Numbered from the stretch's first letter, positions 4,679-51,070 are shown. The stretch: DNA of 64,000 nucleotides from a bacterium (GCA_021796335.1 JAJYHZ010000002.1:192998-256997); one strand, 5' to 3'. Made by a program: numbers and translations. The notes: generated by a model from the letters alone, not told the origin.

Positions 4679-4727
4679 TTTTAAATTAAATTTCTAATAA
4701 CTATAGATTAAAACTAATCGTCATTCA

Positions 4728-23803: not shown

Positions 23804-26800
23804 ATGAGTAATATAATCAGAAAGATCGCAGTTGTAGGGCTTTCAGCAACCACTGTGTTGTCTTTTTCTGGAGTTATTTTCTCAGCTTCAGCCGCAACTG
23901 CCGCTGATATCCAAGCCCAAATTCAGGCTTTGGAAACTCAGCTCGCAGCTTTGCAGTCGCAGCTCGGAACCACTTCGGGAACAACTGCTTCAGCAACCAC
24001 TTTTACTCGCAACCTCACTGTGGGTTCAAGAGGAACTGAAGTTTCAGCCTTACAGCAAATTTTGATTAACGCGGGCTTTTTGAAGATCGCTACTCCGACC
24101 ACCTACTTTGGTCCTTTGACAAAAGCAGCTTTGGCTAAATATCAGGCAGCTAATGGCATTAAGCCGGCTGTCGGATATTTCGGACCGATCACAAGAGCTT
24201 ACGTTAATTCATTACAAACAACAACCGGAACTGGAACCGGCACTGGTACTGGAACAGGTACTGGCACTGGAACCGGAACTGGAACCACAACGCCGGCAGC
24301 CGCTGGTTTGACAGTCTCATTGGCTTCAGACAATCCGGCAGCCGCAAGCATTCCTCGAAATTACACTGGACAGGGATCAGAGTTGGTTCCTGTGATGAAA
24401 GTTAATTTCGCAGCAGGAAGCAATGCCGTTACCGTAACCGATTTGAAAGTCAACCGATCAGGCCTTTCAGCCGACAGTGACATTCAAAATGTTTACCTTA
24501 TGGATGGAAGCAATGTAATTGCAACCAACTTAAGCATCAGCAGCGGTGTTATTGATTTCAATAACGGCGCAGGTTTGTTTACGGTTAACGCAAATCAAAC
24601 AAAAGAACTGATTGTTGCAATCAGCTTGGTTGATAGTGTAGCTGCAGGATCAACCTATCAGTTTTCTATTGCCAGCGCTTCATCAGTTACAGCTGGCGGA
24701 GCTGCAATCAACGGAACATTTCCGGTTAGCGGTAATACTATGACTTCTGCTACAGTTACAACTCTTGGCGGAATTCAGATTACCGACAGCTCAACTGGAA
24801 CTTCATCCCCAGGATTATCAGTAAATGCCGGACAAACTCAGTTCCAGGTTGGACAGTTCTCAATTCAGGCGCAGCAGCAATCAATGCAAGTTAAATCAAT
24901 CAAACTTACTTCGGTTGGAAGCGTAGCCTCAACTGATGTACAGAATTTCAAGTTATACAATGGCGGAACTTTGTTGGCCACTGTTCCTTCAGTTGGCTCA
25001 AACAATACCGTTTTGTTTGACTTGTCAGCTAGTCCGTTGCAATTAACCTCGGGACAATCAGCTCAACTTTATGTTTATGCTGATGTTTTGGGCGGTGTAA
25101 ACCGATACTTCCAATTGTCAATCCAGCATGATTACGATGTAGTTGCGCAGGACTTGATGTTTAATATCGGCGTAACACCTTCATTGAACACCGGTTCATT
25201 CCCGATGTATTTGTCTTATGTCAACGTTCAAGCGGGAGCTTTGACTATTACCAAGGATGCAAACTCTCCGGTTAACTATCTGTTGCCGGGAGGAACCAAC
25301 CAAACCATTGCCAAGATTGATTTCCAGGCAACTGGCGAAGCGGTAAGAATCACAAGTTTCGCTGTTAACTTGGCAACTACTACTGGAACAACCGGAACAG
25401 TCTCTAACCTTAAGGTTATTGATGACCAGGGCGTTCAAATCGGTACGACTCAAACATCGCCGACTTTGGGCTCTGATATTTCTTACAGCAATTTGAATTA
25501 CATCATTCCAGCAAATACAACCAGAGTTCTCTCGGTTGTGGTTGATGTATCTTCAGGTTATTCCGGAACATTGCAAGGTACTATAAAGACTATTGTTGGC
25601 CAGGGATACACTTCTCTTGCCTCAATAAGCAATGCTTCCGGTCAGAGCGGCAATTCTTTGACTGCCAACAGCACTCTTTTGAGCGTTGCTCAAAACGGTT
25701 CATTGGGAACAGTCAGCGTTGTTGCCGGACAATCCAATGCCCACATCGCTTCATTTAACTTGACAGCGGGCGCGGCAAGCGGAGTCAGCGTTTCCAACAT
25801 TTCTTTGACCACCGATTCAAAGGCTGGATCAGTACTGAAGAATTTGGTTGTTAAAGTTGGAGGAACTCAGATCGGAACAACTCAGGGCACTGTCAGCGCA
25901 AGCACTGCTTACACTTTCACTGCCTCAACTCCGATTACAATTGCGGCAGGAGGACAGCAGACTGTTGACGTATATGCCGATGTCCAGAGCGGAGCTTCTA
26001 ACGGTACTACAACCATTACCAGCCTTTCCGGCGTATCGGCTATCGCTTCCGCAACAAATCAGGCAATCACCGGAGTTCCGAGTTCTGCAGTAGCCGGTCA
26101 AACCGACACTGTAGCAACTGCCGGAACAATGACTTATGCTGGTTACAACATGCCGGCTGCACAGCAGGTTGGCATGGGAACAACCGGTATCAAGATTGCT
26201 TCATACTTGTTGACAGGTTCTAACAGCGAAGCTATCAACGTTAATAACGTTACGGTAAATTCAACATCGTCAATTGCCGGTTTGCTTTCAAATTACACTT
26301 TGAAAGTCGGCGGAACCACTTATGGCACTCCGTTAACACCGGGATCAGGAACAACAACCTCATTGACATTTGTTGGAACCAATATTCCTGTTGCTCAGAG
26401 CGGAACTGTTGAATTGGATCTTTATGCAGACGCAAACTCATATTCTAATTTGAGCGGCGTTTACACATCGACCAATACGCCTGCAACGGTTACTGTAGGT
26501 ATTCCTTCGATCACTTATCAGGGAACTGCTTCACAGAATACCGGAACTGCAACAAGCACCGATCAAAGCCAGACTTTGACAGTGGTTAGGTCATCCTTGG
26601 CAGCTTCAACTGCTTCGGGTGTTACCTATGGCGGTTCATACAGCAACTACTTGGTTGGCGCTTTCACATTCACTGCTGGAAGCGGCAACAATGTCAGTAT
26701 TTCCGCAATCAATCTTGGAGAATTGATTAACAATGCAAGCTCAAGTAAAACAACTACTACTTTGATCTTGTGGGATAACACTTTGGGACAGGCCGTTGAC

Positions 26801-27079
26801 TCCACCACTACAACTGTAGATGGAACTGGAGCTACAACTACGCTTGCTGCCGCAATTAATATCCCGGCTGGTACTTCTAAAACAATCGCTGTTTACTCAG
26901 ATGTAAGCGGATTTACTACGAAGCCAACCAATCAAACTTCTTCAATCACAGATCAGGTTAACCTGTTTGGCTGGACTTGGAGCGATGGTACAGTTACCAA
27001 TCTTACTCCGGATCCGCGATACAACTTGCCTACAGCGGCAATCACAGGATCAGCTAGCCCGGTCACGATCGTTCAGTAA
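23804..27079 (+). CDS. giant Thr/Ser-rich secreted surface (S-layer-like) protein with peptidoglycan-binding domain
   Basis: signal peptide, coiled-coil ADIQAQIQALETQLAALQSQL, PG_binding_1-like LTVGSRGTEVSALQQIL...AANGI, (TG)11 linker, >800 aa beta-rich T/S/G/A repeats; strong terminator downstream. Confidence 0.7.
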   Translation: MSNIIRKIAVVGLSATTVLSFSGVIFSASAATAADIQAQIQALETQLAALQSQLGTTSGTTASATTFTRNLTVGSRGTEVSALQQILINAGFLKIATPTTYFGPLTKAALAKYQAANGIKPAVGYFGPITRAYVNSLQTTTGTGTGTGTGTGTGTGTGTGTTTPAAAGLTVSLASDNPAAASIPRNYTGQGSELVPVMKVNFAAGSNAVTVTDLKVNRSGLSADSDIQNVYLMDGSNVIATNLSISSGVIDFNNGAGLFTVNANQTKELIVAISLVDSVAAGSTYQFSIASASSVTAGGAAINGTFPVSGNTMTSATVTTLGGIQITDSSTGTSSPGLSVNAGQTQFQVGQFSIQAQQQSMQVKSIKLTSVGSVASTDVQNFKLYNGGTLLATVPSVGSNNTVLFDLSASPLQLTSGQSAQLYVYADVLGGVNRYFQLSIQHDYDVVAQDLMFNIGVTPSLNTGSFPMYLSYVNVQAGALTITKDANSPVNYLLPGGTNQTIAKIDFQATGEAVRITSFAVNLATTTGTTGTVSNLKVIDDQGVQIGTTQTSPTLGSDISYSNLNYIIPANTTRVLSVVVDVSSGYSGTLQGTIKTIVGQGYTSLASISNASGQSGNSLTANSTLLSVAQNGSLGTVSVVAGQSNAHIASFNLTAGAASGVSVSNISLTTDSKAGSVLKNLVVKVGGTQIGTTQGTVSASTAYTFTASTPITIAAGGQQTVDVYADVQSGASNGTTTITSLSGVSAIASATNQAITGVPSSAVAGQTDTVATAGTMTYAGYNMPAAQQVGMGTTGIKIASYLLTGSNSEAINVNNVTVNSTSSIAGLLSNYTLKVGGTTYGTPLTPGSGTTTSLTFVGTNIPVAQSGTVELDLYADANSYSNLSGVYTSTNTPATVTVGIPSITYQGTASQNTGTATSTDQSQTLTVVRSSLAASTASGVTYGGSYSNYLVGAFTFTAGSGNNVSISAINLGELINNASSSKTTTTLILWDNTLGQAVDSTTTTVDGTGATTTLAAAINIPAGTSKTIAVYSDVSGFTTKPTNQTSSITDQVNLFGWTWSDGTVTNLTPDPRYNLPTAAITGSASPVTIVQ
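24234..24286 (+). repeat. in-frame hexanucleotide (ACNGGN)n tract encoding (Thr-Gly)n
   Basis: accgga actgga accggc actggt actgga acaggt actggc actgga accgga actgga acc. Confidence 0.8.
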
Positions 27080-27300: not shown

Positions 27301-27852
27301 ATGATAATACATCATATTTTGGAAATAATCAGGGCAGCCGGAATTATTTCGGCTGATGTCGCTTTTACCGATTATCACACTTCTTATAGGAGGATGCGGC
27401 GGATGATGAGATATGGAGTTGATTCTTACTTGGAATTAAACGATTTTAAAAAACATAAGGAGTCCGAGAGAAACAGGTTTAACAGCCTCCTTTGGTATTT
27501 GAAGAAAAAAGGATTGATTGAACGGAAAAAAGGTAATAAATGGAAGATAACGGAAGGCGGAATAAAATGGCTAAAGACGCATTCTCATAAATTGATTCCG
27601 TTTGAAAGCAATGAATTAAAAAAGGGAGAGAAAATAATAATTATTTTCGATATCCCCGAGAAAAGCAAAAAGAAACGAGATTGGCTTAGGAAAAGTTTGG
27701 TTAACATCGATTTTAAAATGCTTCAAAAGAGCGTGTGGATGGGAGATTCGAAATTGCCGGAGGAATTCATTTTGGAAATGAAAAATTTAAACATAATTTC
27801 CTATATCCATATATTTTCGATTAAAGAGAAGGGATCGATTGATTTTAAATAG
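27301..27852 (+). CDS. wHTH + Cas2/VapD-like domain protein (PaaX-like architecture), paralog 1
   Basis: C-terminal IIIFDIPEKSKKKRDWLRKSLVNIDFKMLQKSVWMG matches Cas2 pattern (hhhYDh..KRR.kh.k.L..yG.R.Q.SVF); N-terminal LWYLKKKGLIERKKGNKWKITEGG wing-like; paralog at 34536. Confidence 0.5.
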   Translation: MIIHHILEIIRAAGIISADVAFTDYHTSYRRMRRMMRYGVDSYLELNDFKKHKESERNRFNSLLWYLKKKGLIERKKGNKWKITEGGIKWLKTHSHKLIPFESNELKKGEKIIIIFDIPEKSKKKRDWLRKSLVNIDFKMLQKSVWMGDSKLPEEFILEMKNLNIISYIHIFSIKEKGSIDFK

Positions 27853-28318: not shown

Positions 28319-28858
28319 ATGACTGAATTTAATCAAAACAACAAGAAGTTTAAAAGCAAATATTGGAAATTTGTCGCCGGATTTTTTATTTTAATATTTT
28401 TGGCGATTGCCGGGTATGCTGTTTGGAACAAATATTTCGGTTCTGAAGCTAGGGCTATAAGAGCGAAACAAAAACAAATTCAATTTACTTTGGACGCGCA
28501 GAAAAAATACGAAGAGGCGATGAAAAACGACACGTACGGCGGCAAAACTCCGGAGGAAACTTTACAGATGTTTACGGGCGCTTTAAAGAAGGGTGATATT
28601 GATTTAGCGAGCAAGTATTTTGTTTTAAGAGAAGACGGAAGTGTTGATCCAAAGTGGGTGGAGGGATTGGGAAAAGAAAAAACGGATGGGAGATTGCAAC
28701 AAATTATAGGCATTATTCAAAGGTCAAAATCTGATTCAGCTCAATTAACTGATTACTCAGCTTGGTTTACCGTAGATGATAATTCAGGGATGGCTGAATA
28801 TACAATAATTTTAAATTTAGATAAGCAATCAGGAATATGGAAAATAGAAAGCTTGTAG
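28319..28858 (+). CDS. membrane-anchored hypothetical protein (N-terminal TM, extracytoplasmic domain)
   Basis: single TM WKFVAGFFILIFLAIAGYAVW; 22-bp overlap with downstream giant gene suggests operon. Confidence 0.45.
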   Translation: MTEFNQNNKKFKSKYWKFVAGFFILIFLAIAGYAVWNKYFGSEARAIRAKQKQIQFTLDAQKKYEEAMKNDTYGGKTPEETLQMFTGALKKGDIDLASKYFVLREDGSVDPKWVEGLGKEKTDGRLQQIIGIIQRSKSDSAQLTDYSAWFTVDDNSGMAEYTIILNLDKQSGIWKIESL

Positions 28859-31800
28859 ATTTTTTATTTTTAATTTTAATATTGGTAATTTTTATCGGAT
28901 CGGGTTTTATAAATCAAACGTTTGCGTATGACACGGAAACGCACGCTTATTTGACGAGCGAGATTTTTGATTTTTACAACAAAAATTTTCCGCAAAACAA
29001 ATTGGCTGATGAGTTTAAGAATTATTTGATTGACGGCAGCAGAAATGAGGATAATACGCCGAGATGGATGAATCATTTCTACGACCCCGTGAATAACCGA
29101 GGGCTTACTTGCGATAGCGCGATTGATTTAATTTGCTTAGGTAATTGGGAAAGTTCGAAAATTTGGGCAAATGACAACAATAATCAAAATAGTTTGACCT
29201 ACAAAGTGCCGGCAACAATCGCTTCGACTTTGACTGCGATTGAGCAAAAAAATTTGAGTTTAATTTCAGGCGAAACTGATTTTACCTGGAATGAGGCAAT
29301 TAAAGATTGGATTACTGGCAATAAGGGGAAAGCAATATTTATTCTCGGGCATATTCTGCATCTAATTGAAGATATTTCCGTGCCTGATCATACCAGGAAT
29401 GATTCGCATCCCGGAGACAGCCCTTATGAAAATTATAGCCAGCAATTCACTTTGGCTAATCCGGACCAAAACCTGAATAACAGGATGGTTGGCAAAAATC
29501 CGATAATTTTAAGCGATTTGGGAAATTATTTTGACGAATTGGCAAAATATTCCAATAAATATTTTTACAGCAAAGACACGATTGGAATTCAAAGCGGATA
29601 TGAATTTCCGCAACCGGATTTTACAAAATTAGAGTCAGGTGGGAAGTATTACTATGTTTTAAATAGAGATTCAGATGGCCAAAATTATTACCTCATTACA
29701 AAGAAGTCATTGGGAAATATAATTATTAGTTACCCGAATGACTATGCGTTTGATGACAAAATTTCGTCTTCCTACTGGGCTCTTCTTTCCGTGAAATCGG
29801 TTCAATACGGCGCCGGAGCGATAAATCTTTTCTTTCAGGACGTTGAAAAGGCGAAAAACGATTCGAACTTTATCAAGGCGGATACGGCGGAAAACAAATC
29901 AACTTTTTCCGCAATTTATGACACGGCAAAAACATTCGCAAACAATCTTGGCAATTCTTTGGCTTCGATTTGGACTGCGGCAAAAGGCGTTTTCAGCACT
30001 GATCAAAATTTCAATCAAGTAGCCGAAATTGATTTGCAAAACAATGCGAGCGATTCGAATTTGACCACAACCCAAAATCAAAATAAATCCCGGACAAACG
30101 CCAAAACAGTTTCTTTAAAAACGGATAGCTCGAAAACCAAAACAGATGCCGAGGTGGCAAATTTAAAAGATCAAATTAATAATCTGAAAAATAATATTGC
30201 GGCTTTGGAAAAAGAAAATCAGGCGCTTGTAAAATCGCAATCGCAGACAACCGGGGAGATTTCTAAAAATACCGCGATCGGAACGGCCGGGCAAACGAAC
30301 AATTCATCGCCGGCGCAAGTTTCTTGCGGCTTCAATACAGCTCAATCGCCGAGCCGCAATAAATTAATAATAAACGAAGTGGCCTGGATGGGTTCAAGTG
30401 CAAGCGCGAGCGACGAGTGGATTGAGTTAAAAAATATTTCCGGCGGAGATTTAAATATTTCCGGATGGCAATTAATAAGTCAGAATAATCAGATAGAAAT
30501 TAATTTAGAAGGTTTAAAAAATCAAAAAATCGGCGCGGGAAGATTTATTTTGCTGGAGCGGACCGATGATAATTCCGCCATAGGCGTTCCGGCGGATCTG
30601 ATCTACAGCGGCAGTTTGGCCAACACAAACACGGGATTGCGATTATTCGATAGCGATTGCAATTTAACTGATGAAGTTTTTGCTAATCCGAATTGGCCGG
30701 CTGGCGATAATTCTTCAAAGAAAACAATGGAAAGGGATACAAACGGCTTAAACTGGCACACTTCCGGCAATGTCGGCGGAACTCCGAAACAAGAAAATTC
30801 TTCGGCATCTTTCGCTCCAAGCGGCGGATACACAACATTTTCTCCGGCGAATACCGGCCAAAATCAAAATAATGCCGTTCAGTCGGCAGCGGCTCCGCAA
30901 TATTATCCCGTAAAAATAACGGAAATCATGTACAATCCCGAAGGAAGCGATACGGACAGGGAGTGGATAGAAATTTATAATGGCGGGATGTCGGCTGTCG
31001 ATTTAACCGGTTGGAAAATCAATGAAGGCAATGCGAATCATGGCTTGAAATTGTCCGACATCAAAACTTTAAATACGGGAGAGTACGCCGTTATAGCAAG
31101 CAATAAGGCGGGATTTCTTTCAGACTTTCCCGATTATTCGGGAAATATTTTTGAAAGCGCGATTTCTTTAAATAATGGCGGAGAATCGATTGCTTTGAAA
31201 AACGGAGATTTGAAAATTGACGAAATAAATTATTCGCCGGAAACGGGAGCTGACGGAAATGGAAAAAGCCTGCAGTTAATAGGTGGCTTTTGGAAAGAAG
31301 GAACGCCGTCGCCGGGAAAAGAAAATGCGCCGGACGCAGCGGACAAAAATCCGACAGCAGTTTTTGTTTTTAGTCCCGATAATCCGACAGCTGGGGGCGA
31401 GATAAGTTTCGATGCCTCTTCCTCGACTGATTCGGATGGAAATATTGTTGAATATGATTGGGATTTCGGCGACGGCATTTTTGCCACTACAAGCAGCAAT
31501 GCGATTACTCACACATATGCGAATCCCGGAGATTTCATGATTAGTCTGACAGTTTTTGATGATCAAAGCGTTTCGTCATCGGCAACTACTTCGATTTCAA
31601 TAAGACCAGCCGAGGATAATAACATAAATAATTCCGCAAGTCCCGCAAATATTTTTATAAGCGAGATTGTTTATGACGGCGAAGGCGATGACAGCGGAAA
31701 AGAATTTGCGGAATTGTATAATGCGTCCGATCAGACCGATTTAACAGGCTGGGGCTTAAAATATAAAAAAGGAGACGCGACTTCAGCCGAAACCTTGGCG

Positions 31801-33036
31801 GTTTTTGGAAACAATAGCAATGACATCACTGTGATTCCGAAAAACGGATTTCTACTGATCGGCTTAAATAATTATGACGCAGCTAATTATAACCAGGCTG
31901 CGGCCGATATTTTAAGATCAACGAGTTTGCCAAATGGAACAGCTACGGAAACTGTCGACGTAATTTTATACGATGAGAACGGGAATAAAATTAATAGCGT
32001 AAATTATAATGCGGATTCCGCTGCTAGCGGGGCAAGTTTGGAGCGGAGGGCTTTGGTGAACGGCGAATGTGTTATTGCACAAAACGAAAACGAATATTCG
32101 GGAAACGGATGCGATTCGAATAACGTTCTCGACAAACGGGAAATTCCAAATCCGCAGAATTCAAAAAGCCAAAGCGAGCCGAGAACTCCGCCGCCTGCGC
32201 CGGAAAATTTCACCATTAATTTTGAAGAAAATCCCATGCCGGAAGGATATAAACTTGATTGGAAACCATTGGATTTAAATTTAAGCTGGGGGGCGCCGCA
32301 AGGGTACGAAAATTTAAATTATGAAATAAAGGATATAAGCGATTCGGCAAATCATTTTCCCGACATTAAAGCAAAGGCGACTTCGGCAAAGATTTACATC
32401 AATGAGGTCGGCCGGGATTATAAATTTGAAATTTCGGCGATTGACGATATTGGTTTAAAATCCAGTTCAACGCAGTTTTCCATAAATGTTCCCAGTTTTT
32501 TTAAATCCGTTTCGTTTTATTCCAATAGCACATCTTCTTATTCACTTGATTTGAGTTGGGATAAATATCCGTTCATTCCCGATCCAAAAGCCGGAAGAAA
32601 AGTTGTAATTTTTTATTATAACCAGGATGCGCCGGCAATAGGCGATATCAAATGGATTTTCGGGAATGATTATAAAATGTGGGGATTGATCGGACCTGCA
32701 GGCGCCTTGTCTTTGGAATATCCGAATTGCTCGACTCTTTATCCGACTAAAGGAAAATCTTTAATACTTCCCGACAGTCCCAAGTACTGCAACGTTGATA
32801 CGGATCAGGGGAAATACGCAATTAATTACAATTTATTAAATAATCAAAAAATTTCTTTGACCGTATCGAGCAATCAATTTAATTCCGCTCCGGAATCCGG
32901 AAAGGATTATGTGACAATGGCGTTTTATTCTTTTATCCCCGGATATGAGCCGAATGATTACGGAACAAGAATAGTGGGAGTTGATAAAACTAAATATTAT
33001 TTTGAAGGAATTAAAGAAAATTTAAATCCCCTTTGA
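28837..33036 (+). CDS. giant secreted multidomain protein: Zn-dependent phospholipase C/S1-P1 nuclease-like domain + coiled coil + three lamin-tail domains (LTD) + PKD domain + C-terminal beta domains
   Basis: HFYDP and HLIEDISVPDHTRND (Zn-PLC-like); coiled coil ~aa 440-470; LTD motifs INEVAWMGS...DEWIELKNISGGDLNISGWQL, ITEIMYNPEGSDTDREWIEIYNGGMSAVDLTGWKI, ISEIVYDGEGDDSGKEFAELYNASDQTDLTGWGL; PKD VFVFSPDNPTAGGEISFDASSSTDSDGNIVEYDWDFGDG. Confidence 0.75.
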   Translation: MENRKLVDFLFLILILVIFIGSGFINQTFAYDTETHAYLTSEIFDFYNKNFPQNKLADEFKNYLIDGSRNEDNTPRWMNHFYDPVNNRGLTCDSAIDLICLGNWESSKIWANDNNNQNSLTYKVPATIASTLTAIEQKNLSLISGETDFTWNEAIKDWITGNKGKAIFILGHILHLIEDISVPDHTRNDSHPGDSPYENYSQQFTLANPDQNLNNRMVGKNPIILSDLGNYFDELAKYSNKYFYSKDTIGIQSGYEFPQPDFTKLESGGKYYYVLNRDSDGQNYYLITKKSLGNIIISYPNDYAFDDKISSSYWALLSVKSVQYGAGAINLFFQDVEKAKNDSNFIKADTAENKSTFSAIYDTAKTFANNLGNSLASIWTAAKGVFSTDQNFNQVAEIDLQNNASDSNLTTTQNQNKSRTNAKTVSLKTDSSKTKTDAEVANLKDQINNLKNNIAALEKENQALVKSQSQTTGEISKNTAIGTAGQTNNSSPAQVSCGFNTAQSPSRNKLIINEVAWMGSSASASDEWIELKNISGGDLNISGWQLISQNNQIEINLEGLKNQKIGAGRFILLERTDDNSAIGVPADLIYSGSLANTNTGLRLFDSDCNLTDEVFANPNWPAGDNSSKKTMERDTNGLNWHTSGNVGGTPKQENSSASFAPSGGYTTFSPANTGQNQNNAVQSAAAPQYYPVKITEIMYNPEGSDTDREWIEIYNGGMSAVDLTGWKINEGNANHGLKLSDIKTLNTGEYAVIASNKAGFLSDFPDYSGNIFESAISLNNGGESIALKNGDLKIDEINYSPETGADGNGKSLQLIGGFWKEGTPSPGKENAPDAADKNPTAVFVFSPDNPTAGGEISFDASSSTDSDGNIVEYDWDFGDGIFATTSSNAITHTYANPGDFMISLTVFDDQSVSSSATTSISIRPAEDNNINNSASPANIFISEIVYDGEGDDSGKEFAELYNASDQTDLTGWGLKYKKGDATSAETLAVFGNNSNDITVIPKNGFLLIGLNNYDAANYNQAAADILRSTSLPNGTATETVDVILYDENGNKINSVNYNADSAASGASLERRALVNGECVIAQNENEYSGNGCDSNNVLDKREIPNPQNSKSQSEPRTPPPAPENFTINFEENPMPEGYKLDWKPLDLNLSWGAPQGYENLNYEIKDISDSANHFPDIKAKATSAKIYINEVGRDYKFEISAIDDIGLKSSSTQFSINVPSFFKSVSFYSNSTSSYSLDLSWDKYPFIPDPKAGRKVVIFYYNQDAPAIGDIKWIFGNDYKMWGLIGPAGALSLEYPNCSTLYPTKGKSLILPDSPKYCNVDTDQGKYAINYNLLNNQKISLTVSSNQFNSAPESGKDYVTMAFYSFIPGYEPNDYGTRIVGVDKTKYYFEGIKENLNPL

Positions 33037-33103
33037 TTCTATTCAAAGAGGACTGAATAAAAATCGCCGTCCCGTTGGGCGGGACGGCGGAGTCCGAGGT
33101 AGA

Positions 33104-33661
33104 TTATTTGCTTTCTTTTTTCGGGACCGGAGATGAGACGGCTTCTATTTTAAGATCTTCGTCTAAAAGGATTATTCTGTCGGCCCTGTCTTTTAATTCT
33201 CTGGAAATCGTGCCTTTTGACGACACAATCGTGACTTTAATATCAATATTTTTCAGAGAATCAATAAGATACGCAAAGTCGGAATCTCCCGAGATGAGCA
33301 CGACTTCGTTGCAATCGCGACGCCAGGCATGACGGCAGATATCAGTGGCGATTTCAACATCGAAGTTCGCCTTATTTTTGATACTACCGTTACTGAGACT
33401 GATCGTCTTGATCTCTTTTGCGACAACCCTGAAGCCGGAAAGTTCAAGATAGTCATAAAATTTTTTCCAGCCGGGATTTTCGGGTTTTTCTATATAGATC
33501 GATTTCTCGACCAAGTCTGACCCGAGCGTCACTGTTTCTACGAGCTTGTTAAAGTCAAGCCTAACCTGGGTCAAGCTCATTTTTTTTGCCTGGATGATTG
33601 CGGCAAAGGCCGCTCCGATGTTTGCTTTGTCTATCAGCACGACAGACTTTGATTGCGGCAT
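33104..33661 (-). CDS. NYN-domain (LabA-like/DUF88) PIN-fold nuclease
   Basis: VVLIDKANIG...DVEIATDI...VVLISGDSDFAYLI acidic-residue pattern of NYN domains. Confidence 0.7.
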   Translation of the reverse strand: MPQSKSVVLIDKANIGAAFAAIIQAKKMSLTQVRLDFNKLVETVTLGSDLVEKSIYIEKPENPGWKKFYDYLELSGFRVVAKEIKTISLSNGSIKNKANFDVEIATDICRHAWRRDCNEVVLISGDSDFAYLIDSLKNIDIKVTIVSSKGTISRELKDRADRIILLDEDLKIEAVSSPVPKKESK

Positions 33662-34535: not shown

Positions 34536-35093
34536 ATGAAAGGAGAAAAACGATTAAGAATTTTAGAGGGAATTGAATTAGGGATGGATACTATCGGAGA
34601 TTTAGTTTTTATATTTAGTTTGCCGTACGGAACTTCCTTTTCTAAAATGAGATATCTGCTTGCAAATAGGGATAGATTTAAAAAATCAGACAATAATAAT
34701 GAAAAAAAGAGATTCCAGGATTTAATGTATCATTTGCGAAGAGACGGTCTAATCGACGAATCCAAAAGAAAGCTCATTTTAACTTTAAAAGGAAAAAAAT
34801 TTTTAAATAGAAAAAAATTTACAACTTTTTCATATAAAAAAGAAAGCGACAATATAATAAAAATAATAATATTTGATATTCCCGAATCTCAGAGAAGAAA
34901 AAGGGTGTGGTTGAGGCAGGCTATAAAAACAATGGGGTTCCAAATGATACAAAAAAGCGTCTGGTTGGGTAAAGTAAAAATCCCGGAAGAATTTTTAAAT
35001 GATTTAAAAAATATGAATCTGATGAATTATATAGAGATTATCGGAATTACAAAGATAGGAACTTTAAAACAAATGAAATATTTTAATCTTTAA
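34536..35093 (+). CDS. wHTH + Cas2/VapD-like domain protein (PaaX-like architecture), paralog 2
   Basis: IKIIIFDIPESQRRKRVWLRQAIKTMGFQMIQKSVWLG aligns with paralog 1 and Cas2 pattern; N-terminal LMYHLRRDGLIDESKRKLILTLKGKKFL wHTH-like. Confidence 0.5.
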   Translation: MKGEKRLRILEGIELGMDTIGDLVFIFSLPYGTSFSKMRYLLANRDRFKKSDNNNEKKRFQDLMYHLRRDGLIDESKRKLILTLKGKKFLNRKKFTTFSYKKESDNIIKIIIFDIPESQRRKRVWLRQAIKTMGFQMIQKSVWLGKVKIPEEFLNDLKNMNLMNYIEIIGITKIGTLKQMKYFNL

Positions 35094-36180: not shown

Positions 36181-36402
36181 GTTTGGAAAAGAAGCGGTAT
36201 TTATCCAAAATTGTTTTGGATTTTTGGGGCGATCTGACACTATATTAATATTGTCCGCAATATTGATTATAAAGTCTGGCTGTATTAGTATTAATAAATA
36301 ATAAAATCCCGTAATTTGGGATTTATATTTTATATAAAAACTTCATGCTCAAGGATTGCGTAGGCTCAAAGAAAGACTTAGCAATACTTTAACAGGGAAG
36401 TT

Positions 36403-38574
36403 ATGCGCAGAATGAAGCTTTTGATGAAAATATCCCTTTGGATATTGGCCTTTATTCCTCTTGTTATCGCCAATTCGGCATTTTTCCCTTACATTAGCGG
36501 AAAAAGTTTGATGATCAGAGCGGCCATTGCAGCAGTATCTTTGTTATTTATAATCCATCTAAACTTTTCCAAATATTTCAGAAAAGAAATTACCGGAAAA
36601 ATAAAAAAATACTGGAAGAATCCTCTTACTATAACGACTTTTTCATTTATTTTACTGACAACTATCAGCGCGATTTTCGCTTTTAACTCTTATAAAGCAT
36701 TTTTCGGCGACGTGGAGAGGGGAGAAGGGCTTTTGGGAATTCTTTCATTTTTTGCATTTTTCGTTTTTTCTCTTTTAATTTTTGAAAAGGAGGATTGGAA
36801 TTGGTTCTTCAGGTTCAATCTTTTTACGGGAATCATTTTGTTTGTAAACGAATTTTCGGCATTTCATTCCGGTACGGTGAGGCCGGGCGCAAATACGGGA
36901 AACCCGACTTTTTTGGCGGGATATTTTCTATTCGTGATTATGGCGGCTATAGCGAGTTATGCTATGGCGGAAAGAGATTCGGCCGCGGGATTGAGTTGGA
37001 AAATCCTATCGGCTATAACCGGAATTTTGGCAGTGGCCGGAATATTTATCACGGAAACCCGCGGAACCATTGTCGGATTGGCGATCGGGGTTTTGGCAAT
37101 AATTATTTATGCGGCTATAAAAGGAAAGGAAACCAAAATCTTCAACAAAATCAGTTTGCAAAAATTTTCTTTGGTTTTATTGGGAGTGTTGGTTGCATTG
37201 ATGCTGATTTTTGCCGCAACAAGGACAAATCCGGTTTGGGAAAAAGTTCCGGGATTAAACAGGTTGGCTCAAATCGGAACTGCGAGCGGAGACAGTTCGA
37301 TAAATACGCGTTTGATTTCCTTGGGAGTCAGCTTGAAAGCGATTAACCCGACCAATAATTCACTGAAGGAATTTTTAATCGGATGGGGGCAGGATAATTT
37401 CAGCATCGCTTATAACAGAAATTACAATCCGCAATATTATAAATACGAGCACTCTTGGTTTGACAGGGCGCACAACAAAATAATGGATGTTCTGGTGATG
37501 GACGGGGTTGCCGGTTTGGTTTCATACCTGGCATTGTGGGGAGCGTTTTTATGGCTGGTGTTCAGGAAAAAAGGATTTTCCGCCTTGGCGATGGCGACTT
37601 TGCTTTTCGGCGTAAGCTATTTTGCACATATTTTCGTGGTGTTCGATCAAATATCCACCTGGATTCCGTTTTTCGCGGCATTGGCGTTTTTGGTTTTCGT
37701 ATCGGAATTCAAGGATGAAGAAAAAAAGCCTGCCCATAAAACCGCAGAAGCAGGCGAGGCAAATAACTATACGCTGCCCTTAATTTTCGGGGCAATCGCA
37801 ATTTTCTTTTTATACAGTTTGATTTTTTGGACCGTAATCCCTTTTTCACAAATGAGCACGTATTTGGGCGCATATTCTTCAAGCAATCTGACGGATTTTA
37901 CAAATGCGGTAAAAAGCTCTTTAACTCCGTTTACTTACGCGCAGGAAGATATAAGAGGACATTTTTTGTCGATGGCGATGTCGTCTTATGCCAAAAACCC
38001 GAATTTCAAGGATTTGTTCAATTTGGCTTTGAACGAAATGGTTGATTTGGTGAACAGGGATCCGGCGAATCCGAGGTACGCTTTGCAAGCGGGTGAAGCG
38101 TATAATTTTCGAGGAAAGATGACAAATAACGCGGATGATTTAAAAACGGCGGAAAAATATTTCCGACAGGCTTTGGCTTGGGCGCCGCGAAGGCAGGATG
38201 TCATTTATGATCTATCCATGAGCGTATTGTCCCAAGGCAGAATCAATGAGGCCCTGGATCTTTTAAACGGATCAATGAAAGATGACAGTCAGGTTCCGGA
38301 GACTCATTATTATCTGGCTGTCGCTCAGACTTATTCGGGCGATTATAAGGATGCGTTGGCCAATGCCGAGTATGCCGCAAGCAGAATAAGCATGCCGCAA
38401 ATGAGCAATTTGTATCAGCAATTTTTGGCGTATTTCTACAAAGAAAAGGACAAGGCGGATTTTATGACAACGGCAAACAGGCTGGAAATTTTGGAGTCGG
38501 ACAAAAAATCCGAATTAGATCAGATTTTAAATTACGTAAACAAAGGCCAATGGCCGGTGATTAATTTTCAGTAA
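36403..38574 (+). CDS. O-antigen ligase/Wzy_C-like polytopic membrane protein with C-terminal TPR repeats (candidate O-oligosaccharyltransferase or polymerase)
   Basis: ~11 TM helices in first 450 aa, large loop, C-terminal ~250 aa TPR-like (YYLAVAQTYSGDYKDALANAEYA). Confidence 0.5.
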   Translation: MRRMKLLMKISLWILAFIPLVIANSAFFPYISGKSLMIRAAIAAVSLLFIIHLNFSKYFRKEITGKIKKYWKNPLTITTFSFILLTTISAIFAFNSYKAFFGDVERGEGLLGILSFFAFFVFSLLIFEKEDWNWFFRFNLFTGIILFVNEFSAFHSGTVRPGANTGNPTFLAGYFLFVIMAAIASYAMAERDSAAGLSWKILSAITGILAVAGIFITETRGTIVGLAIGVLAIIIYAAIKGKETKIFNKISLQKFSLVLLGVLVALMLIFAATRTNPVWEKVPGLNRLAQIGTASGDSSINTRLISLGVSLKAINPTNNSLKEFLIGWGQDNFSIAYNRNYNPQYYKYEHSWFDRAHNKIMDVLVMDGVAGLVSYLALWGAFLWLVFRKKGFSALAMATLLFGVSYFAHIFVVFDQISTWIPFFAALAFLVFVSEFKDEEKKPAHKTAEAGEANNYTLPLIFGAIAIFFLYSLIFWTVIPFSQMSTYLGAYSSSNLTDFTNAVKSSLTPFTYAQEDIRGHFLSMAMSSYAKNPNFKDLFNLALNEMVDLVNRDPANPRYALQAGEAYNFRGKMTNNADDLKTAEKYFRQALAWAPRRQDVIYDLSMSVLSQGRINEALDLLNGSMKDDSQVPETHYYLAVAQTYSGDYKDALANAEYAASRISMPQMSNLYQQFLAYFYKEKDKADFMTTANRLEILESDKKSELDQILNYVNKGQWPVINFQ

Positions 38575-38577
38575 AAT

Positions 38578-39627
38578 ATGAAAATTCTCGTTACAGGAGG
38601 CGCAGGATTTATTGGATCAAATTTTATTAGATACATCTTAAATAAATATAATGATGCACAAATTTTAAATTACGATGCGCTTACTTATTCTGGGAATTTA
38701 GAAAATTTAAAAGATATTAAAGAAAATGGAAGATATAAATTCGTTCAGGGAAATGTTGCAGATAAAAATTCCTTAGATGAAGTTTTTGCAGATTTTCAAC
38801 CAGATCTTGTTATTAATTTTGCAGCAGAAACCCATGTAGATAGAAGTATTCATGTTGGCGCAAAAGAATTTATTGATACAAATATTACAGGTGTTTTTAA
38901 TATTTTGGAAGCGGTCAAAAATGATTCGAATATTAAAAAATATGTTCAGGTTTCAACTGATGAAGTTTATGGGAGTTTGGATTTAGATTCAGAAAATGAG
39001 TTTTCAGAAGAAACTTCTTTTGCGCCAAACGTTCCTTATGCCGCAACTAAAGCAGGGGGAGATCTTTTGTGTAGGGCCTATAACCACACATTTGGAGTTC
39101 CTGTTGTTGTAACTCATTGCTCGAATAATTACGGGCCTTATCAATATCCAGAAAAACTAATTCCGTTTTTAATTTTGAGAATGTTAGAGGATAAAAAAAT
39201 TCCATTGTATGGAGATGGGGAAAATGTTAGGGATTGGATATATGTTTTAGATCATTGCAGTGCATTAGAATCTTGTTTATTTAATGGAAAATCTGGAGAA
39301 GTTTATAACATTGGAGGTGATAATGAATTGGCAAATGTTGAAATTGCAAAAAGAATTTTAAGATATTTTAACAGAGATGAATCATGGATTGAATATGTAA
39401 AAGACAGACCAGGACATGATCGAAGATATGCGATCGATTCTTCTAAAATACAGCAAGAATTGGGTTGGAAACCAAAATATAATTTTGAACAGGCTTTTGA
39501 TGAAACGGTCAAATGGTATTTGAATAATCCCGAATGGATCGATGGTGTTAGAAAAAAAACAGGCGTTTTTAATCCTCATATAGATTTATGGAAAGAACAT
39601 AAAAGTTTAGACGATAATAAAGTATGA
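38578..39627 (+). CDS. rfbB: dTDP-glucose 4,6-dehydratase
   Basis: MKILVTGGAGFIGSNF, catalytic YxxxK (YAATKAG), RmlB-specific DALTYSGNLENL. Confidence 0.9.
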   Translation: MKILVTGGAGFIGSNFIRYILNKYNDAQILNYDALTYSGNLENLKDIKENGRYKFVQGNVADKNSLDEVFADFQPDLVINFAAETHVDRSIHVGAKEFIDTNITGVFNILEAVKNDSNIKKYVQVSTDEVYGSLDLDSENEFSEETSFAPNVPYAATKAGGDLLCRAYNHTFGVPVVVTHCSNNYGPYQYPEKLIPFLILRMLEDKKIPLYGDGENVRDWIYVLDHCSALESCLFNGKSGEVYNIGGDNELANVEIAKRILRYFNRDESWIEYVKDRPGHDRRYAIDSSKIQQELGWKPKYNFEQAFDETVKWYLNNPEWIDGVRKKTGVFNPHIDLWKEHKSLDDNKV

Positions 39628-40334
39628 AGGGTATTATTTTGGCGGGAGGAAATGGAACACGTTTAAGGCCATTGACTCTTATAACAAATAAGCATCTTTT
39701 GCCGGTTTATAATAAGCCGATGATTTTATATCCCTTAGAAACTTTAAGAAAATCGGGCATTGATGAAATTATGATAGTTTGCGGGAAAGAACATGCCGGA
39801 CATTTTATGAATTTTCTGAGTTCTGGGGAAAATTATGGAGTAAAATTATCTTATGCACTTCAGCATGATGCTGGGGGAATAGCTGAGGCATTGGGATTAG
39901 CAGAGGATTTTGCTGATAATGGTAAAATTGCAGTTATACTGGGGGACAATATTTTTGAAGATGATTTTTCGAATAATATTAAATCTTTTAGGAAACAAAA
40001 TGGAGCAAAGGTTTTTATAAAAAAAGTTACTGATCCGACTAGGTTTGGTATTGCAGTAATAAAAGAAGGGAAAATAATCAGTATTGAAGAGAAGCCTAAA
40101 AATCCTAAATCGAATTTTGCAACAGTCGGGTTTTATCTTTACGATTCCGATGTTTTTAAAAAAATTAAAAATCTAAAACCATCCAAAAGAGGGGAATTGG
40201 AAATAACGGATGTCCATAATATGTACATAAAAGAAAATAATTTATCCTATGGTGTTGTTAAGGGATTTTGGTCAGATGCCGGCACATTTGAATCTTTATT
40301 TAAGACCTCTAAGTGGGCACTATCTAGAAAATAA
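39624..40334 (+). CDS. rfbA: glucose-1-phosphate thymidylyltransferase (short form)
   Basis: MKGIILAGGNGTRLRPLT nucleotidyltransferase motif; position within rml operon; 236 aa lacks sedimentation/allosteric C-terminus. Confidence 0.75.
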   Translation: MKGIILAGGNGTRLRPLTLITNKHLLPVYNKPMILYPLETLRKSGIDEIMIVCGKEHAGHFMNFLSSGENYGVKLSYALQHDAGGIAEALGLAEDFADNGKIAVILGDNIFEDDFSNNIKSFRKQNGAKVFIKKVTDPTRFGIAVIKEGKIISIEEKPKNPKSNFATVGFYLYDSDVFKKIKNLKPSKRGELEITDVHNMYIKENNLSYGVVKGFWSDAGTFESLFKTSKWALSRK

Positions 40335-40886
40335 ATGGCAGCTAATTTTATACAAACAAATTTTAGAGAATCTTTTATTATTGAACCCAAAGCTTTTGAA
40401 GACCATAGGGGTTATTTTATGGAGTCTTATAATATTAAAGATTTTCAAAACAAAGGGATTACTGATAAATTTATTCAGGAGAATTTTTCTTTTTCCCAGA
40501 AAAACGTTTTGAGGGGAATGCACTTCCAAAAATCACCTCATGAAACAAGCAAATTTATTCGTTGTGTGGAAGGGGAAATTTACAATGTTATGATAGATAT
40601 TCGCAAAAACTCGTCGACTTTTGGTAACTGGCAAGGGTTTTTCTTATCCAAAGAAAACAGAAAGATGCTTTACGTGCCTAAAGGATTTGCCAATGGATTT
40701 TGTGCCATAAGCAATGGAGCGGGAGTTGCTTATATGGTGGATGAGTTATATTATCCTGATTTTGCTGGAATTATTAGATGGGATGATCCTGATATTGGTA
40801 TTTCTTGGCCAGTCAAAAATCCAGTTCTTTCTGAACAAGACAAAAACGCTCCATTTTTAAAGGAAATTATTGATTTTCTAGGGTAA
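40335..40886 (+). CDS. rfbC: dTDP-4-dehydrorhamnose 3,5-epimerase
   Basis: FIIEPKAFEDHRGYFMESYN ... LRGMHFQ ... cupin fold motifs of RmlC. Confidence 0.85.
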   Translation: MAANFIQTNFRESFIIEPKAFEDHRGYFMESYNIKDFQNKGITDKFIQENFSFSQKNVLRGMHFQKSPHETSKFIRCVEGEIYNVMIDIRKNSSTFGNWQGFFLSKENRKMLYVPKGFANGFCAISNGAGVAYMVDELYYPDFAGIIRWDDPDIGISWPVKNPVLSEQDKNAPFLKEIIDFLG

Positions 40887-40903
40887 GTTGCTTATTCTAA
40901 AAT

Positions 40904-41731
40904 ATGGATTTTTCAAAAACCTTAATTACTGGTGGCGATGGGATGGTCGGCAGCTATGTCGATTTTGGTGTTAAAACAAATAAAAGATCTCTAGATATAA
41001 CAGATTTAAAAGAAGTCTTACTTGTGGTAAATAAATATAAACCTAAAGCCATATTACATTTAGCGGCAGAGACCGATGTTGATCGCTGTGAGCGTGATCC
41101 ACAATTTGCTTATTTTATAAATTCAATCGGAACTTATAATATTGCTTTAGCTGCCAAGCAGATTGGGGCAAAACTGGTTTATGTATCTACAAATGCTATC
41201 TTTGATGGAAAGAAAAAAACTCCTTACCAAGAAAATGATGCACCCAATCCGCAAAATTATTATGGTCATTCTAAATTTTTGGGAGAAGCAGCAATAAAAG
41301 AATTATTAGAGGACTACCTCATTGTTAGAGCTTCTTGGATGTTTGGTGGAGGGCCAGCAAAAGATCAAAAGTTTGTTGCAAAAATTATCAATCAAATAAA
41401 AAATCCAGAAATTAAAGAAATTAAAGCAGTCACAGATCAAATAGGTGCCCCTACTTCTGGGAAAGATTTGGTAAAAGGAATAAAATTTCTTTTAGAAAAA
41501 GATGAGAAAGGAATTTTTAATTTGCCAAATTCTGGAATAGCTTCAAGGTATGATGTCGCTAAATTTATAATAAATACATTAAGACCAGAAGTTAATGTGA
41601 TTCCCGTGGATTCTTCTTATTTTAATTTAGATGCTAAGAGAATTGGGAATGACGGTTTAATATCAAAAATTAATATAATGCGTTCATGGCAGGATGCTAT
41701 GGCAGAATATTTAAAAGAAGAATGGATTTAA
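40904..41731 (+). CDS. rfbD: dTDP-4-dehydrorhamnose reductase
   Basis: short-chain reductase GGDGMVGS, ILHLAAETDVDRCERDP, STNAIFDG RmlD motifs. Confidence 0.8.
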   Translation: MDFSKTLITGGDGMVGSYVDFGVKTNKRSLDITDLKEVLLVVNKYKPKAILHLAAETDVDRCERDPQFAYFINSIGTYNIALAAKQIGAKLVYVSTNAIFDGKKKTPYQENDAPNPQNYYGHSKFLGEAAIKELLEDYLIVRASWMFGGGPAKDQKFVAKIINQIKNPEIKEIKAVTDQIGAPTSGKDLVKGIKFLLEKDEKGIFNLPNSGIASRYDVAKFIINTLRPEVNVIPVDSSYFNLDAKRIGNDGLISKINIMRSWQDAMAEYLKEEWI

Positions 41732-41748
41732 AATAATTAATCAAAGCT

Positions 41749-42981
41749 ATGAAAGAAGAATTTGTTCATAATAATAAATGTAAAAGTTGCGATGGTGTTA
41801 ATTTAGTGAAGTTTTTGGATTTGGGATCTATGCCTCCAGCCAATGCTTTTTTACCTAAAGATGAACTGAATAATGCCGAAGATAAATTTCCTTTGGCTGT
41901 TTATTTTTGTCAGGATTGTGCCATGGTCCAACTTTTGGATGTTGTTGACCAAGATATTCTTTTTGGCCGCTATAACTATTTAACATCAGCTAGTAAACCA
42001 TTGGTGGATCATTTTATCCAAATGGGGAATGAATTAGTAAATAAATTCATTAAATCCAGAGATGATTTAGTGGTTGAGATTGGAGGAAATGATGGGGTAT
42101 TAGTTGGTGCTATTAAAGATAAATGCAGAGTTTTAAATGTGGAACCTGCAAGCAATATTGCGGAAATTTCTAGAGAAAAGGGGATAGAGACCATTAATAA
42201 ATTTTTCAATAAAGATTTAGTGGAGGAAATTTTGAAGAAATATGGCAATGCTAAAGTTATTGTCGCCAATAATGTTATGGCTCATATAGATGATTTAAAG
42301 AGCGTATTTGAAGGCATAAAAATTTTAATTGGAGGGGATGGGGTTTTTGTGTTTGAAGTTCACTGGGTTGGTAATTTGTTGGGCGAAGGCGGATTTGATC
42401 AAATTTATCATGAGCATCTTTATTACCACTCTTTAATTTCTTTGAGGAATTTTGTAAAGCAATTTGGTTTGAATATTTTTGATATTGAAACGGTCCCTAT
42501 ACATGGCGAATCAATGCGAGTTTATGTAAGTAAAAATATGCCAATAAGTGAAAATGTTGAAAAATTTTTAACAAAGGAAAAACAACTCGGACTTGATAGA
42601 GCGGAAACATTTTTAAATTTTTCAAAAAAAGTTGAAGATAATAAAATAAGATTAAAATCGATTCTTAACGAATTAAAAAAAGAAAATAAAAAAATAATTG
42701 GCTATGGTGCGCCCGCAAAAGGCAATACATTACTTAATTATTTTGAAATAGACAGCACTATTTTAGGTTACATAATTGATACAACGCCTCTAAAACAAGG
42801 AATGTACACGCCTGGAACACATATTATCGTGAGTTCGCCAGATAGAATAAAAGAAGAATTACCGGATTACATTTTGCTTTTAGCTTGGAATTATGCAGAT
42901 GCTATTTTAAATAAAGAAAAAGAATTGCGAGAAAGAGGCGTGAAATTTATTATCCCCGTGCCTGAAGCAAAAATTGTGTAA
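41749..42981 (+). CDS. NDP-hexose C-methyltransferase-like (TylC3/Methyltransf_13+14 architecture) with N-terminal zinc ribbon
   Basis: CKSCDG...CQDCAM zinc-ribbon, class I MTase motif VVEIGGNDG, C-terminal domain typical of sugar C-methyltransferases; 410 aa. Confidence 0.55.
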   Translation: MKEEFVHNNKCKSCDGVNLVKFLDLGSMPPANAFLPKDELNNAEDKFPLAVYFCQDCAMVQLLDVVDQDILFGRYNYLTSASKPLVDHFIQMGNELVNKFIKSRDDLVVEIGGNDGVLVGAIKDKCRVLNVEPASNIAEISREKGIETINKFFNKDLVEEILKKYGNAKVIVANNVMAHIDDLKSVFEGIKILIGGDGVFVFEVHWVGNLLGEGGFDQIYHEHLYYHSLISLRNFVKQFGLNIFDIETVPIHGESMRVYVSKNMPISENVEKFLTKEKQLGLDRAETFLNFSKKVEDNKIRLKSILNELKKENKKIIGYGAPAKGNTLLNYFEIDSTILGYIIDTTPLKQGMYTPGTHIIVSSPDRIKEELPDYILLLAWNYADAILNKEKELRERGVKFIIPVPEAKIV

Positions 42982-43026
42982 TTTTTATCTATTGCTTCAA
43001 GCAAGATTTCTTTAACTATCATAATT

Positions 43027-43977
43027 ATGAAGAGTATTTGTAATATTTGTAAACATGACGATGCAAGGCTAATTTTTTATACAAAGGATAATCGTTATAA
43101 TCCAAAAAATAATAAAAAATTTCGTCTTATACAATGTCTTAACTGTGGGTTGGTTTATATAAATCCTTTACCGGATGATTCCGCTATTAAAGATTCTTAT
43201 GGATTTAATTATTTTAAATTAAAGGATGGATCTAAACCAAAAGGAAGAATAATTCAGATTTTAAAATTCATTAAAAAAAAATTCTCTCTAAACATTTATC
43301 CTACCTACAAATTTTATAGACTTAAAAATAAATTTTTCAGTAATAATTCCGGGAAATTTCTTGATGTCGGATGTGCTACGGGATTATTAGATGAATTTCT
43401 AATAAAAGAATTTCCTAGGTGGAAATTTTTCGGAATTGAGCCTAGTGAGGGAGCTTTTAAAAGAGCTTCACGAGTGAATGAATTTAAAGTTTTTAAAGGT
43501 GCTTTAGAAGACGCGAAATATCCATCCGATTATTTCGATATTATTTTAATAAATCAAGTTTTAGAACATGTTTATGATCCTGCCTCAGTAATAAATAAAT
43601 GTTCTCACATTTTAAAGTCGACCGGGAAATTAATTATTGCTGTCCCAGATTTTAATTCTTTCAGCTCTAAAATCTTTGGTAAATATTGGTATCATCTCGA
43701 TGTTCCCAGGCATTTATATCACTTTAATATAAAATCGTTAGAACTGATCCTTGAAAGGAATGGATTTCTTATTCAGAAGAAAGAGAAAGAATCTTTACCC
43801 GGATCTTTTGTAAAAAGCATTTTTCTTTTATTCGGTTCAAACCCTGATTCATTAGATAGTTCGTATGCATGGGTTGCAGTTAAAATTTTATTTAACCCTA
43901 TTTTAAATTTTTTGAATATCTTATTTGAAAAATTTGGTATTTCCAATGGAATTTTTATTATTGCAATAAAGAATTAA
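43027..43977 (+). CDS. class I SAM-dependent methyltransferase with N-terminal Cys4 zinc ribbon
   Basis: CNICKHD...CLNCGLVY, motif I FLDVGCATG, Methyltransf_11/23-like. Confidence 0.6.
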   Translation: MKSICNICKHDDARLIFYTKDNRYNPKNNKKFRLIQCLNCGLVYINPLPDDSAIKDSYGFNYFKLKDGSKPKGRIIQILKFIKKKFSLNIYPTYKFYRLKNKFFSNNSGKFLDVGCATGLLDEFLIKEFPRWKFFGIEPSEGAFKRASRVNEFKVFKGALEDAKYPSDYFDIILINQVLEHVYDPASVINKCSHILKSTGKLIIAVPDFNSFSSKIFGKYWYHLDVPRHLYHFNIKSLELILERNGFLIQKKEKESLPGSFVKSIFLLFGSNPDSLDSSYAWVAVKILFNPILNFLNILFEKFGISNGIFIIAIKN

Positions 43978-43979
43978 TT

Positions 43980-45814: not shown

Positions 45815-45816
45815 CT

Positions 45817-46614: not shown

Positions 46615-46686
46615 ATCTATGTTTAAAAAAAAGTATATAAATTTAATAAGGAAATTTGTTGGCAATATAGAAAGAGAAAGAGTGGG

Positions 46687-47832: not shown

Positions 47833-47867
47833 ATTCGATAGTTTAATTTCGTTTCAAATAAAAATAA

Positions 47868-49088: not shown

Positions 49089-49095
49089 AGGAAAC

Positions 49096-49158
49096 AGATT
49101 CTTCGTCCGCCGGCTGGGCGGATTCAGGATGACAAGGAGGCGGATCAGGATAACAGAA
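49096..49158. repeat. MITE-like repeat fragments copy 3 (tandem ggcggattcaggatgac / ggcggatcaggataac)
   Basis: shares ggcgga(t)caggatgac core with copies 1, 2, 4. Confidence 0.55.
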
Positions 49159-49175
49159 ACTAATAGCGAATGGCG

Positions 49176-50627: not shown

Positions 50628-50652
50628 AAATTAAACACAAATTTCACAAATG
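50609..50652. promoter_or_regulatory. heptamer array (cacgaat, cacaaat x3) overlapping wzx start and GxxExxY stop
   Basis: gaattcacgaatattcacaaattaaacacaaatttcacaaatg; ~85% identical to reverse complement of nusA-upstream array. Confidence 0.5.
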
Positions 50653-51045: not shown

Positions 51046-51070
51046 TTGTGTAAATTTGTGCGTAAATTAT
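51024..51070. promoter_or_regulatory. heptamer array (attcgtg x2, atttgtg x2, cgtaaat) overlapping GxxExxY start
   Basis: ttattcgtgatattcgtgatcatttgtgtaaatttgtgcgtaaatt. Confidence 0.5.

Follow-up and report, generated by a model that had tools for sequence, protein, structure and literature searches.

Two overlapping genes at positions 28,319 to 33,036 of a 64,000-nucleotide stretch of bacterial DNA (GCA_021796335.1 JAJYHZ010000002.1:192998-256997; this whole stretch is called the window below) raise the question of what a giant secreted protein of 1399 amino acids (aa) does outside its cell, and what the small membrane protein encoded directly in front of it contributes. Our answer, to which we assign a probability of roughly one half, is that the giant protein is an exported enzyme of the phospholipase C (PLC) lineage, a phosphodiesterase with a trinuclear zinc site, which is carried on a beta-sandwich stalk, is served by an obligate membrane-tethered partner and cleaves the head groups from the phospholipids of neighbouring cells. 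The locus is laid out as follows (nt, nucleotides):

28319..28858, + strand: partner gene, open reading frame of 179 aa
28837..33036, + strand: giant gene, open reading frame of 1399 aa for a secreted multidomain protein
28837..28858, + strand: dual-coding junction of 22 nt, in which the partner ends ...W-K-I-E-S-L-stop and the giant protein begins M-E-N-R-K-L-V

The two same-strand reading frames and their 22-nt overlap are as stated in a reading of the DNA made beforehand from its sequence alone (the sequence-only reading), which had also considered a fusion caused by an assembly error. Such an artefact is ruled out because the identical 1399-aa protein is present on 4 contigs, including ENA and Logan assemblies, and because a comparison of conservation and synteny in relatives yielded full-length homologues with the same domain order in many metagenome-assembled genomes (MAGs).

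The first part of the argument concerns export and the catalytic head, for which two features are needed:

28837..28926, + strand: signal peptide (aa 1-30), predicted signal-peptidase I site between T-F-A and Y31
28927..29871, + strand: Zn-PLC-like catalytic head (aa 31-345)

By hydropathy the signal peptide is the sole hydrophobic segment of the giant protein, and no C-terminal hydrophobic anchor was found. In an alignment of 85 species-level sequences, the residue at position -1 of the cleavage site is A (75) or G (10), that at -3 is A, V, T, I or S, and that at +1 is Tyr in 85/85. Cleavage probably occurs after Ala30, with Tyr31 as the new N-terminus. The head consists of an all-alpha core (aa ~31-245), followed by a family-specific extension of ~100 aa with a beta-hairpin and a long helix, and it has the characteristic all-alpha fold of the superfamily of Zn-dependent PLC and P1 nuclease. 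HFYDP (H80-P84) and H175-x3-D179-x3-P-D-H185, the motifs that had first drawn attention to it, are both present. Candidate metal ligands are Y31 (the N-terminus), H36, D72, H80, H175, D179, H185, H191 and E198, and all nine are invariant in 85/85 sequences at an overall identity of 40-57%, as are E71, R76, R187 and D189 in their vicinity.

The earlier description of the head as PLC-like holds with a change of footing: since a direct scan with Zn_dep_PLPC (PF00882) stays below the cut-off, the call rests on family-profile and structural evidence. The family was sampled by a search with aa 1-401, which returned 69 proteins, the named ones mostly from Patescibacteria MAGs, and 42 of these were aligned (alignment A1); the nine ligand candidates are invariant or nearly so in it as well. 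When the A1 profile was compared with the PDB, the top matches were all phospholipases C from Bacillus and Listeria (E ~0.01), and no S1/P1 chain was among the matches at E<=10. Nearly half of the relatives (19/42) match PF00882 at E<0.01 (best E = 8.7e-6), and 0/42 match the S1-P1 nuclease model (PF02265). In structural comparison the head is likewise less similar to S1/P1 nucleases than to PLCs. An hhalign comparison of A1 with B. cereus PLC gave a probability of 91% and paired H175, D179, H185 and E198 with H118, D122, H128 and E146 of the PLC, whose sequence was confirmed in fragments by the PDB matches. A phmmer search of the head against the PDB and an NCBIfam scan of it gave no match. 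As far as sequence and modelling can place it, the head belongs, intact, to the PLC/P1 structural superfamily and falls on its PLC side, with a candidate set of zinc ligands.

Compared with the classical zinc PLCs (B. cereus PC-PLC 1AH7, Listeria PlcB 8CQM, the N-domain of C. perfringens/absonum alpha-toxin; PF00882), to which it has ~21% identity, the head is peculiar in having a Tyr instead of a Trp, a shorter loop between D72 and H80, a displaced eighth ligand (H191) and the ~100-aa extension of its own. The N-terminal residue is Trp1 in both B. cereus PLC and P1 nuclease, and Tyr31 would take this place in the head. Alpha-toxin continues into a PLAT-like membrane-binding domain, whereas here a coiled coil and a stalk follow. 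We know of no obligate upstream membrane partner for classical PLCs.

Linker and stalk contain the following parts:

30145..30246, + strand: leucine-zipper coiled coil (aa 437-470), heptad positions a = V,I,I,N and d = L,L,L,L
30346..30678, + strand: lamin-tail domain (LTD) 1 (aa 504-614), PF00932 41.4 bits (gathering score 34.3)
30901..31233, + strand: lamin-tail domain 2 (aa 689-799), PF00932 67.9 bits (34.3)
31348..31593, + strand: PKD domain (aa 838-919), PF18911 (PKD_4) 68.7 bits, PF00801 52.7 bits
31633..32010, + strand: lamin-tail domain 3 (aa 933-1058), PF00932 52.8 bits (34.3)
32092..32508, + strand: C1 module, FN3-like beta-sandwich (aa ~1086-1224)
32527..33033, + strand: C2 module, second beta-sandwich (aa ~1231-1399), with conserved Cys1298 and Cys1318

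The zipper lies within an S/T/N/Q-rich linker (aa ~346-496), in which the Pfam scan found weak TSC22 and Tektin matches to the zipper region. This coiled coil behind the head, the three LTDs, each of which exceeds the gathering score by itself, and the PKD domain had all been recognized in the sequence-only reading. Its beta-rich tail of about 400 aa has to be shortened: only ~320 aa follow LTD3. A search of these last 320 aa for a concealed catalytic domain or anchor gave only FN3-like and generic beta-sandwich folds, with no specific structural match for C2; the C1-C2 module recurs in most homologues.

How widespread such proteins are was determined by scanning one genome per species. At least 561 species-representative genomes carry the head domain, and 80 loci were retained, all of which are labelled as Patescibacteria-type MAGs or are unclassified. 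Names among the 80 include Jorgensen-, Wolfe-, Brenner-, Colwell- and Harrisonbacteria, Paceibacter, Tyrphobacter, Minisyncoccia and MAGs of the Parcubacteria group; other loci are labelled just "bacterium" or "uncultured Candidatus Saccharibacteria". The complete 984-kb Wolfebacteria genome CP011209 is among them. Unlike classical zinc PLCs, the head was found only in genomes that are labelled as Patescibacteria-type MAGs or are unclassified. An exhaustive profile search returned 7367 clusters (50% identity) at E<=1e-3, of which 4881 reach E<=1e-10; among the 150 matches listed the best match starts at or within ~55 residues of the N-terminus. A search with the full-length protein found more than 400 homologues of 1200-1900 aa, many covering 99% of the query, for which the best available name is "lamin tail domain-containing protein".

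Architectures were classified in 70 complete genes with hidden Markov models (HMMs) made from segments of the giant protein itself. The head is present and first in 70/70 genes and is the sole part never lost. Behind it come 0-4 LTDs, an optional PKD domain and usually at least one C1-C2 module; the N-L-L-P-L-C1-C2 order of the giant protein is one of the commoner types. In 6/70 genes (L006, L029, L030, L041, L045 and L080; e.g., L006:5001-10061), which represent a sub-clade, a staphylococcal-nuclease (SNase) domain is inserted in the linker region, directly after the head, and a Falkowbacteria relative (L088:4001-5854) is composed of a PLC-like and an SNase part only, which suggests that hydrolase heads of two different kinds can be mounted on the scaffold. 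Judged from these domain orders, the architecture is a modular family theme rather than a one-off, and the giant gene is an ordinary member of the family. The pair may also occur twice in one genome: in Brennerbacteria MAG JAZDNP01 the cassette is found on two contigs, as loci L014 and L037, so that the pair does undergo paralogous duplication.

The small upstream protein is the second constant of the locus. Its single hydrophobic segment (aa ~17-37) bears out the single transmembrane helix that had been proposed for it; a Lys-rich cytoplasmic N-terminus precedes this helix, and an extracytoplasmic domain of ~110 aa with the conserved end WKIESL follows it:

28526..28855, + strand: partner ectodomain (aa ~70-179), weakly NTF2-like / DUF4878-like

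The ectodomain contains the invariant motif D-x2-GG-x-TPEETL-x2-F-x2-AL-x3-D-x3-A-x2-Y. Its profile (A4) finds designed NTF2 proteins as best matches in the PDB, weakly (E = 0.002-0.1), and 21/40 members of the family match DUF4878, all of them below threshold (best E = 5.9e-4). An NTF2-like fold is therefore likely, as far as profiles allow such a call. The partner family comprises 1672 clusters, none of which has a functional name or a curated Pfam match.

In 89/89 loci the gene directly in front of the PLC-like gene encodes a homologue of the partner: 86/86 by HMM plus the three most divergent relatives examined, in which the upstream protein was recovered with E = 3e-53, 6e-17 and 3.5e-11. 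The gene directly upstream on the same strand in four distant loci encodes 157-212 aa, and its product is homologous to the 179-aa partner. The pairing extends to relatives without any LTD, for example a 541-aa protein from Magasanikbacteria and a 617-aa protein from Falkowbacteria that has only the PLC-like and SNase parts. Because the partner persists when all but the head is lost, we infer that it must serve the head. We read it as a type-II membrane protein and as the obligate partner of the head, presumably in a physical complex with it. Its role could be that of a tether, a foldase, an inhibitor or a lipid acceptor.

The junction of the two genes (TATGGAAAATAGAAAG), in which the partner C-terminus (WKIESL-stop) and the giant N-terminus (MENRK) are read from the same bases, is retained as an overlap in 40/84 loci, with 22 nt in 36 and 28 nt in 4. 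In the loci without overlap the partner still ends in WKIES(L/M), whereas the giant protein begins differently. Since MENRK disappears without the overlap and WKIES stays, MENRK is a by-product of dual coding, and its interpretation as a special export signal is ruled out. The constrained element at the junction is, by this comparison of sequences, the last strand of the partner.

Comparable pairs of adjacent genes are the secreted lipase LipA of Pseudomonas and Burkholderia with its dedicated, membrane-anchored foldase Lif, and toxin-immunity pairs with NTF2-like immunity proteins. They resemble the present locus in the 1:1 adjacency of a secreted membrane-active hydrolase and a small, N-terminally anchored extracytoplasmic protein. 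The gene order differs from that of LipA-Lif in that the partner is upstream here.

How the pair may work can be outlined from these observations. The two genes form a unit that is conserved among Parcubacteria-type Patescibacteria, in which the small upstream gene is translationally coupled to the giant gene through the 22-nt overlap and the giant protein is exported by the Sec system. After cleavage, Tyr31 would complete a trinuclear zinc site together with H36, D72, H80, H175, D179, H185, H191 and E198, and the head, as a member of the phospholipase C branch within the PLC/P1 superfamily, would act as a phosphodiesterase. The flexible linker with its short leucine zipper would probably mediate oligomerisation, and the stalk of six beta-sandwich domains (LTD, LTD, PKD, LTD, FN3-like, unnamed) would provide reach or binding on a cell surface. 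Hydrolysis of the head-group phosphodiester bond in the phospholipids of a neighbouring (host) cell would then breach the membrane and/or release diacylglycerol and phospho-head groups to a bacterium that makes no lipids itself. The interpretation offered in the sequence-only reading, a host- or membrane-attacking or adhesion factor, is thereby supported in part.

Several observations weigh against this proposal. The score of the giant protein with PF00882 is 16.2 bits in full length and 20.3-20.4 bits for the N-domain alone, at a gathering threshold of 26.8. H191 is not aligned with H142 of the PLC by hhalign. The N-terminal ligand candidate is Tyr rather than Trp and stands 5 residues ahead of the first His, a distance that is 5 in P1 nuclease and 13 in PLC, so that the spacing in the head is P1-like. 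With an SNase domain in some family members, a nucleic acid is a possible substrate, and there are extracellular nucleases, ExeM among them, that contain LTDs.

The spacing, the SNase-bearing variants and the LTDs are at the same time what speaks for a different activity, namely that the head functions as a nuclease/3'-nucleotidase and serves a nucleotide-auxotrophic bacterium as a surface scavenger, the LTDs helping to hold DNA or RNA. S1/P1 and the surface 3'-nucleotidase/nuclease of Leishmania are the models for such an enzyme. The S1/P1 nucleases (S1 5FB9, SmNuc1 8QJL, plant ENDO2 3W52; PF02265) have the superfamily fold and the trinuclear-zinc logic predicted for the head in common with it, the distance from the N-terminal residue to the first His is similar, and they are alike in being extracellular scavenging enzymes of auxotrophic organisms. 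ExeM of Shewanella is comparable as a secreted or surface hydrolase with at least one LTD, which is non-catalytic; it differs in being an EEP nuclease with OB folds and a single LTD, and neither a PLC-like head nor a partner gene has been described for it. An identity of the head with S1/P1 nucleases finds no support in the profiles or in the structural ranking, which contradict it, and it is because SNase-bearing variants exist that it is retained, as a functional rival only. We consider a nuclease function, the main rival, unlikely on balance.

A phospholipase-like enzyme need not act on a foreign cell. It could act on the envelope of its producer, either in the remodelling of scavenged phospholipids or on phosphodiester-linked wall polymers, with the partner as a regulator or inhibitor that protects the producer membrane. 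The partner is indeed membrane-anchored in the producer and strictly co-inherited, and among immunity proteins and inhibitors the small NTF2-like fold recurs. The location of the locus fits too: on the chromosome, among envelope/polysaccharide and housekeeping genes. It is preceded by genes for NusA, a pyrophosphatase, ClpP, a 2-hydroxyacid dehydrogenase, GAPDH and RpiB and followed by SpoU and then a surface-polysaccharide cluster, and since SpoU, ClpP, NusA and 2-Hacid_dh flank the cassette in other genomes too, the cassette belongs to the core genome and not to a mobile island. However, a beta-sandwich stalk of ~1000 aa and a signal peptide that is probably cleaved suggest action away from the producer membrane, and the SNase variants suggest an attack on foreign macromolecules. 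A function within the producer envelope thus appears quite doubtful to us.

The phosphodiesterase proposal can also be extended. The two proteins could form a lipid-harvesting pair, in which the PLC head cleaves off the host head groups and the NTF2-like partner captures diacylglycerol or another lipid for the membrane of the symbiont, while the SNase variants harvest nucleic acids on the same scaffold. An NTF2-like fold carries phospholipids in MlaC. Among the other genes of the window no lipid-salvage function (diacylglycerol kinase, CdsA and similar) was found. This extension is a speculation that we would expect to fail far more often than to hold. That the protein is a structural adhesin or surface fibre with the head as a non-catalytic binding module is very improbable: although ~70% of it consists of LTD, PKD, FN3-like and beta-sandwich domains typical of adhesins and the composition of the stalk varies freely between species, the head alone is never lost (70 genes), and the invariance of the nine ligand candidates and of E71, R76, R187 and D189 in 85 sequences, unusual for a dead enzyme, disfavours such a reading.

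With phospholipid cleavage on neighbouring cells as the preferred function, the locus bears on a gap in the biology of the ultrasmall Patescibacteria (Candidate Phyla Radiation, CPR), to which its bacterium belongs. They account for much of bacterial diversity and have no lipid or nucleotide synthesis of their own. To our knowledge, there are few cultures and no genetics in the Parcubacteria branch, for which the pair offers a tangible candidate, open to cloning, for attack on host membranes or for lipid salvage. According to a review from 2024, no mechanism of lipid uptake or breakdown has been identified in these bacteria, which lack lipid synthesis, and a part for phospholipases in compromising the envelope of the host has been proposed (PMC11665869). 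If the lipid-harvesting extension were true, the pair would be the missing route of lipid acquisition in Patescibacteria.

Known are the fold and every domain of the stalk. New is the combination of a Pfam-escaping Tyr1 variant of the zinc PLCs with an obligate, probably NTF2-like membrane partner, a conserved dual-coding junction and a modular LTD/PKD/FN3 stalk that sometimes includes SNase. From the genomes searched this combination appears to be confined to Patescibacteria-type genomes and to be widespread there, and no description of the family was found in the literature on LTD or PLC in CPR/Patescibacteria. Two unannotated families are thereby defined, namely the zinc PLCs of the Tyr1 type and their probably NTF2-like partner. 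It should be noted that the label "lamin tail domain-containing protein" conceals a predicted enzyme.

Downstream of the giant gene lies a possible end of the transcription unit:

33065..33089, no strand: GC-rich hairpin of 10 bp (9 G-C), from a consensus scan only, between the stop codon of the giant gene and a convergent NYN gene

It is probably, to judge from the sequence, the terminator that closes the two-gene unit. The NYN-domain (RNase-like) gene at 33104-33661 (-) converges with the giant gene, and this hairpin between the two could terminate transcription from both sides. A promoter scan was uninformative (17 sites found versus 16 expected).

The cassette is flanked by two paralogues that are 36% identical, one of 183 aa (27301-27852 +) and one of 185 aa (34536-35093 +). 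Both have a winged-helix region and a PaaX_M/Cas2-like domain, a PaaX_M protein adjoins the cassette in locus L004 too, and they may be local regulators. Another large secreted protein, of 1091 aa, is encoded at 23804-27079 (+); its sequence comprises a PG_binding_1 domain (aa 76-130), a (Thr-Gly)n linker and beta-rich repeats that extend over ~900 aa and lack annotation, and unannotated proteins of similar size are found upstream of the cassette in L005 and L006. The surface-polysaccharide cluster (~36400-52400) comprises a Wzy_C ligase-like gene, rmlABCD, a C-methyltransferase, three GT2, a GT4, a GT9, a flippase and a sugar transferase; the GC content is 28-30% at 42-48 kb and ~38-40% elsewhere in the window. 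At 2654-6281 (-) there is an operon for a MacB-like ABC exporter (FtsX/MacB_PCD permease, ABC ATPase and HlyD-like adaptor), in an organism that is presumed to be without an outer membrane.

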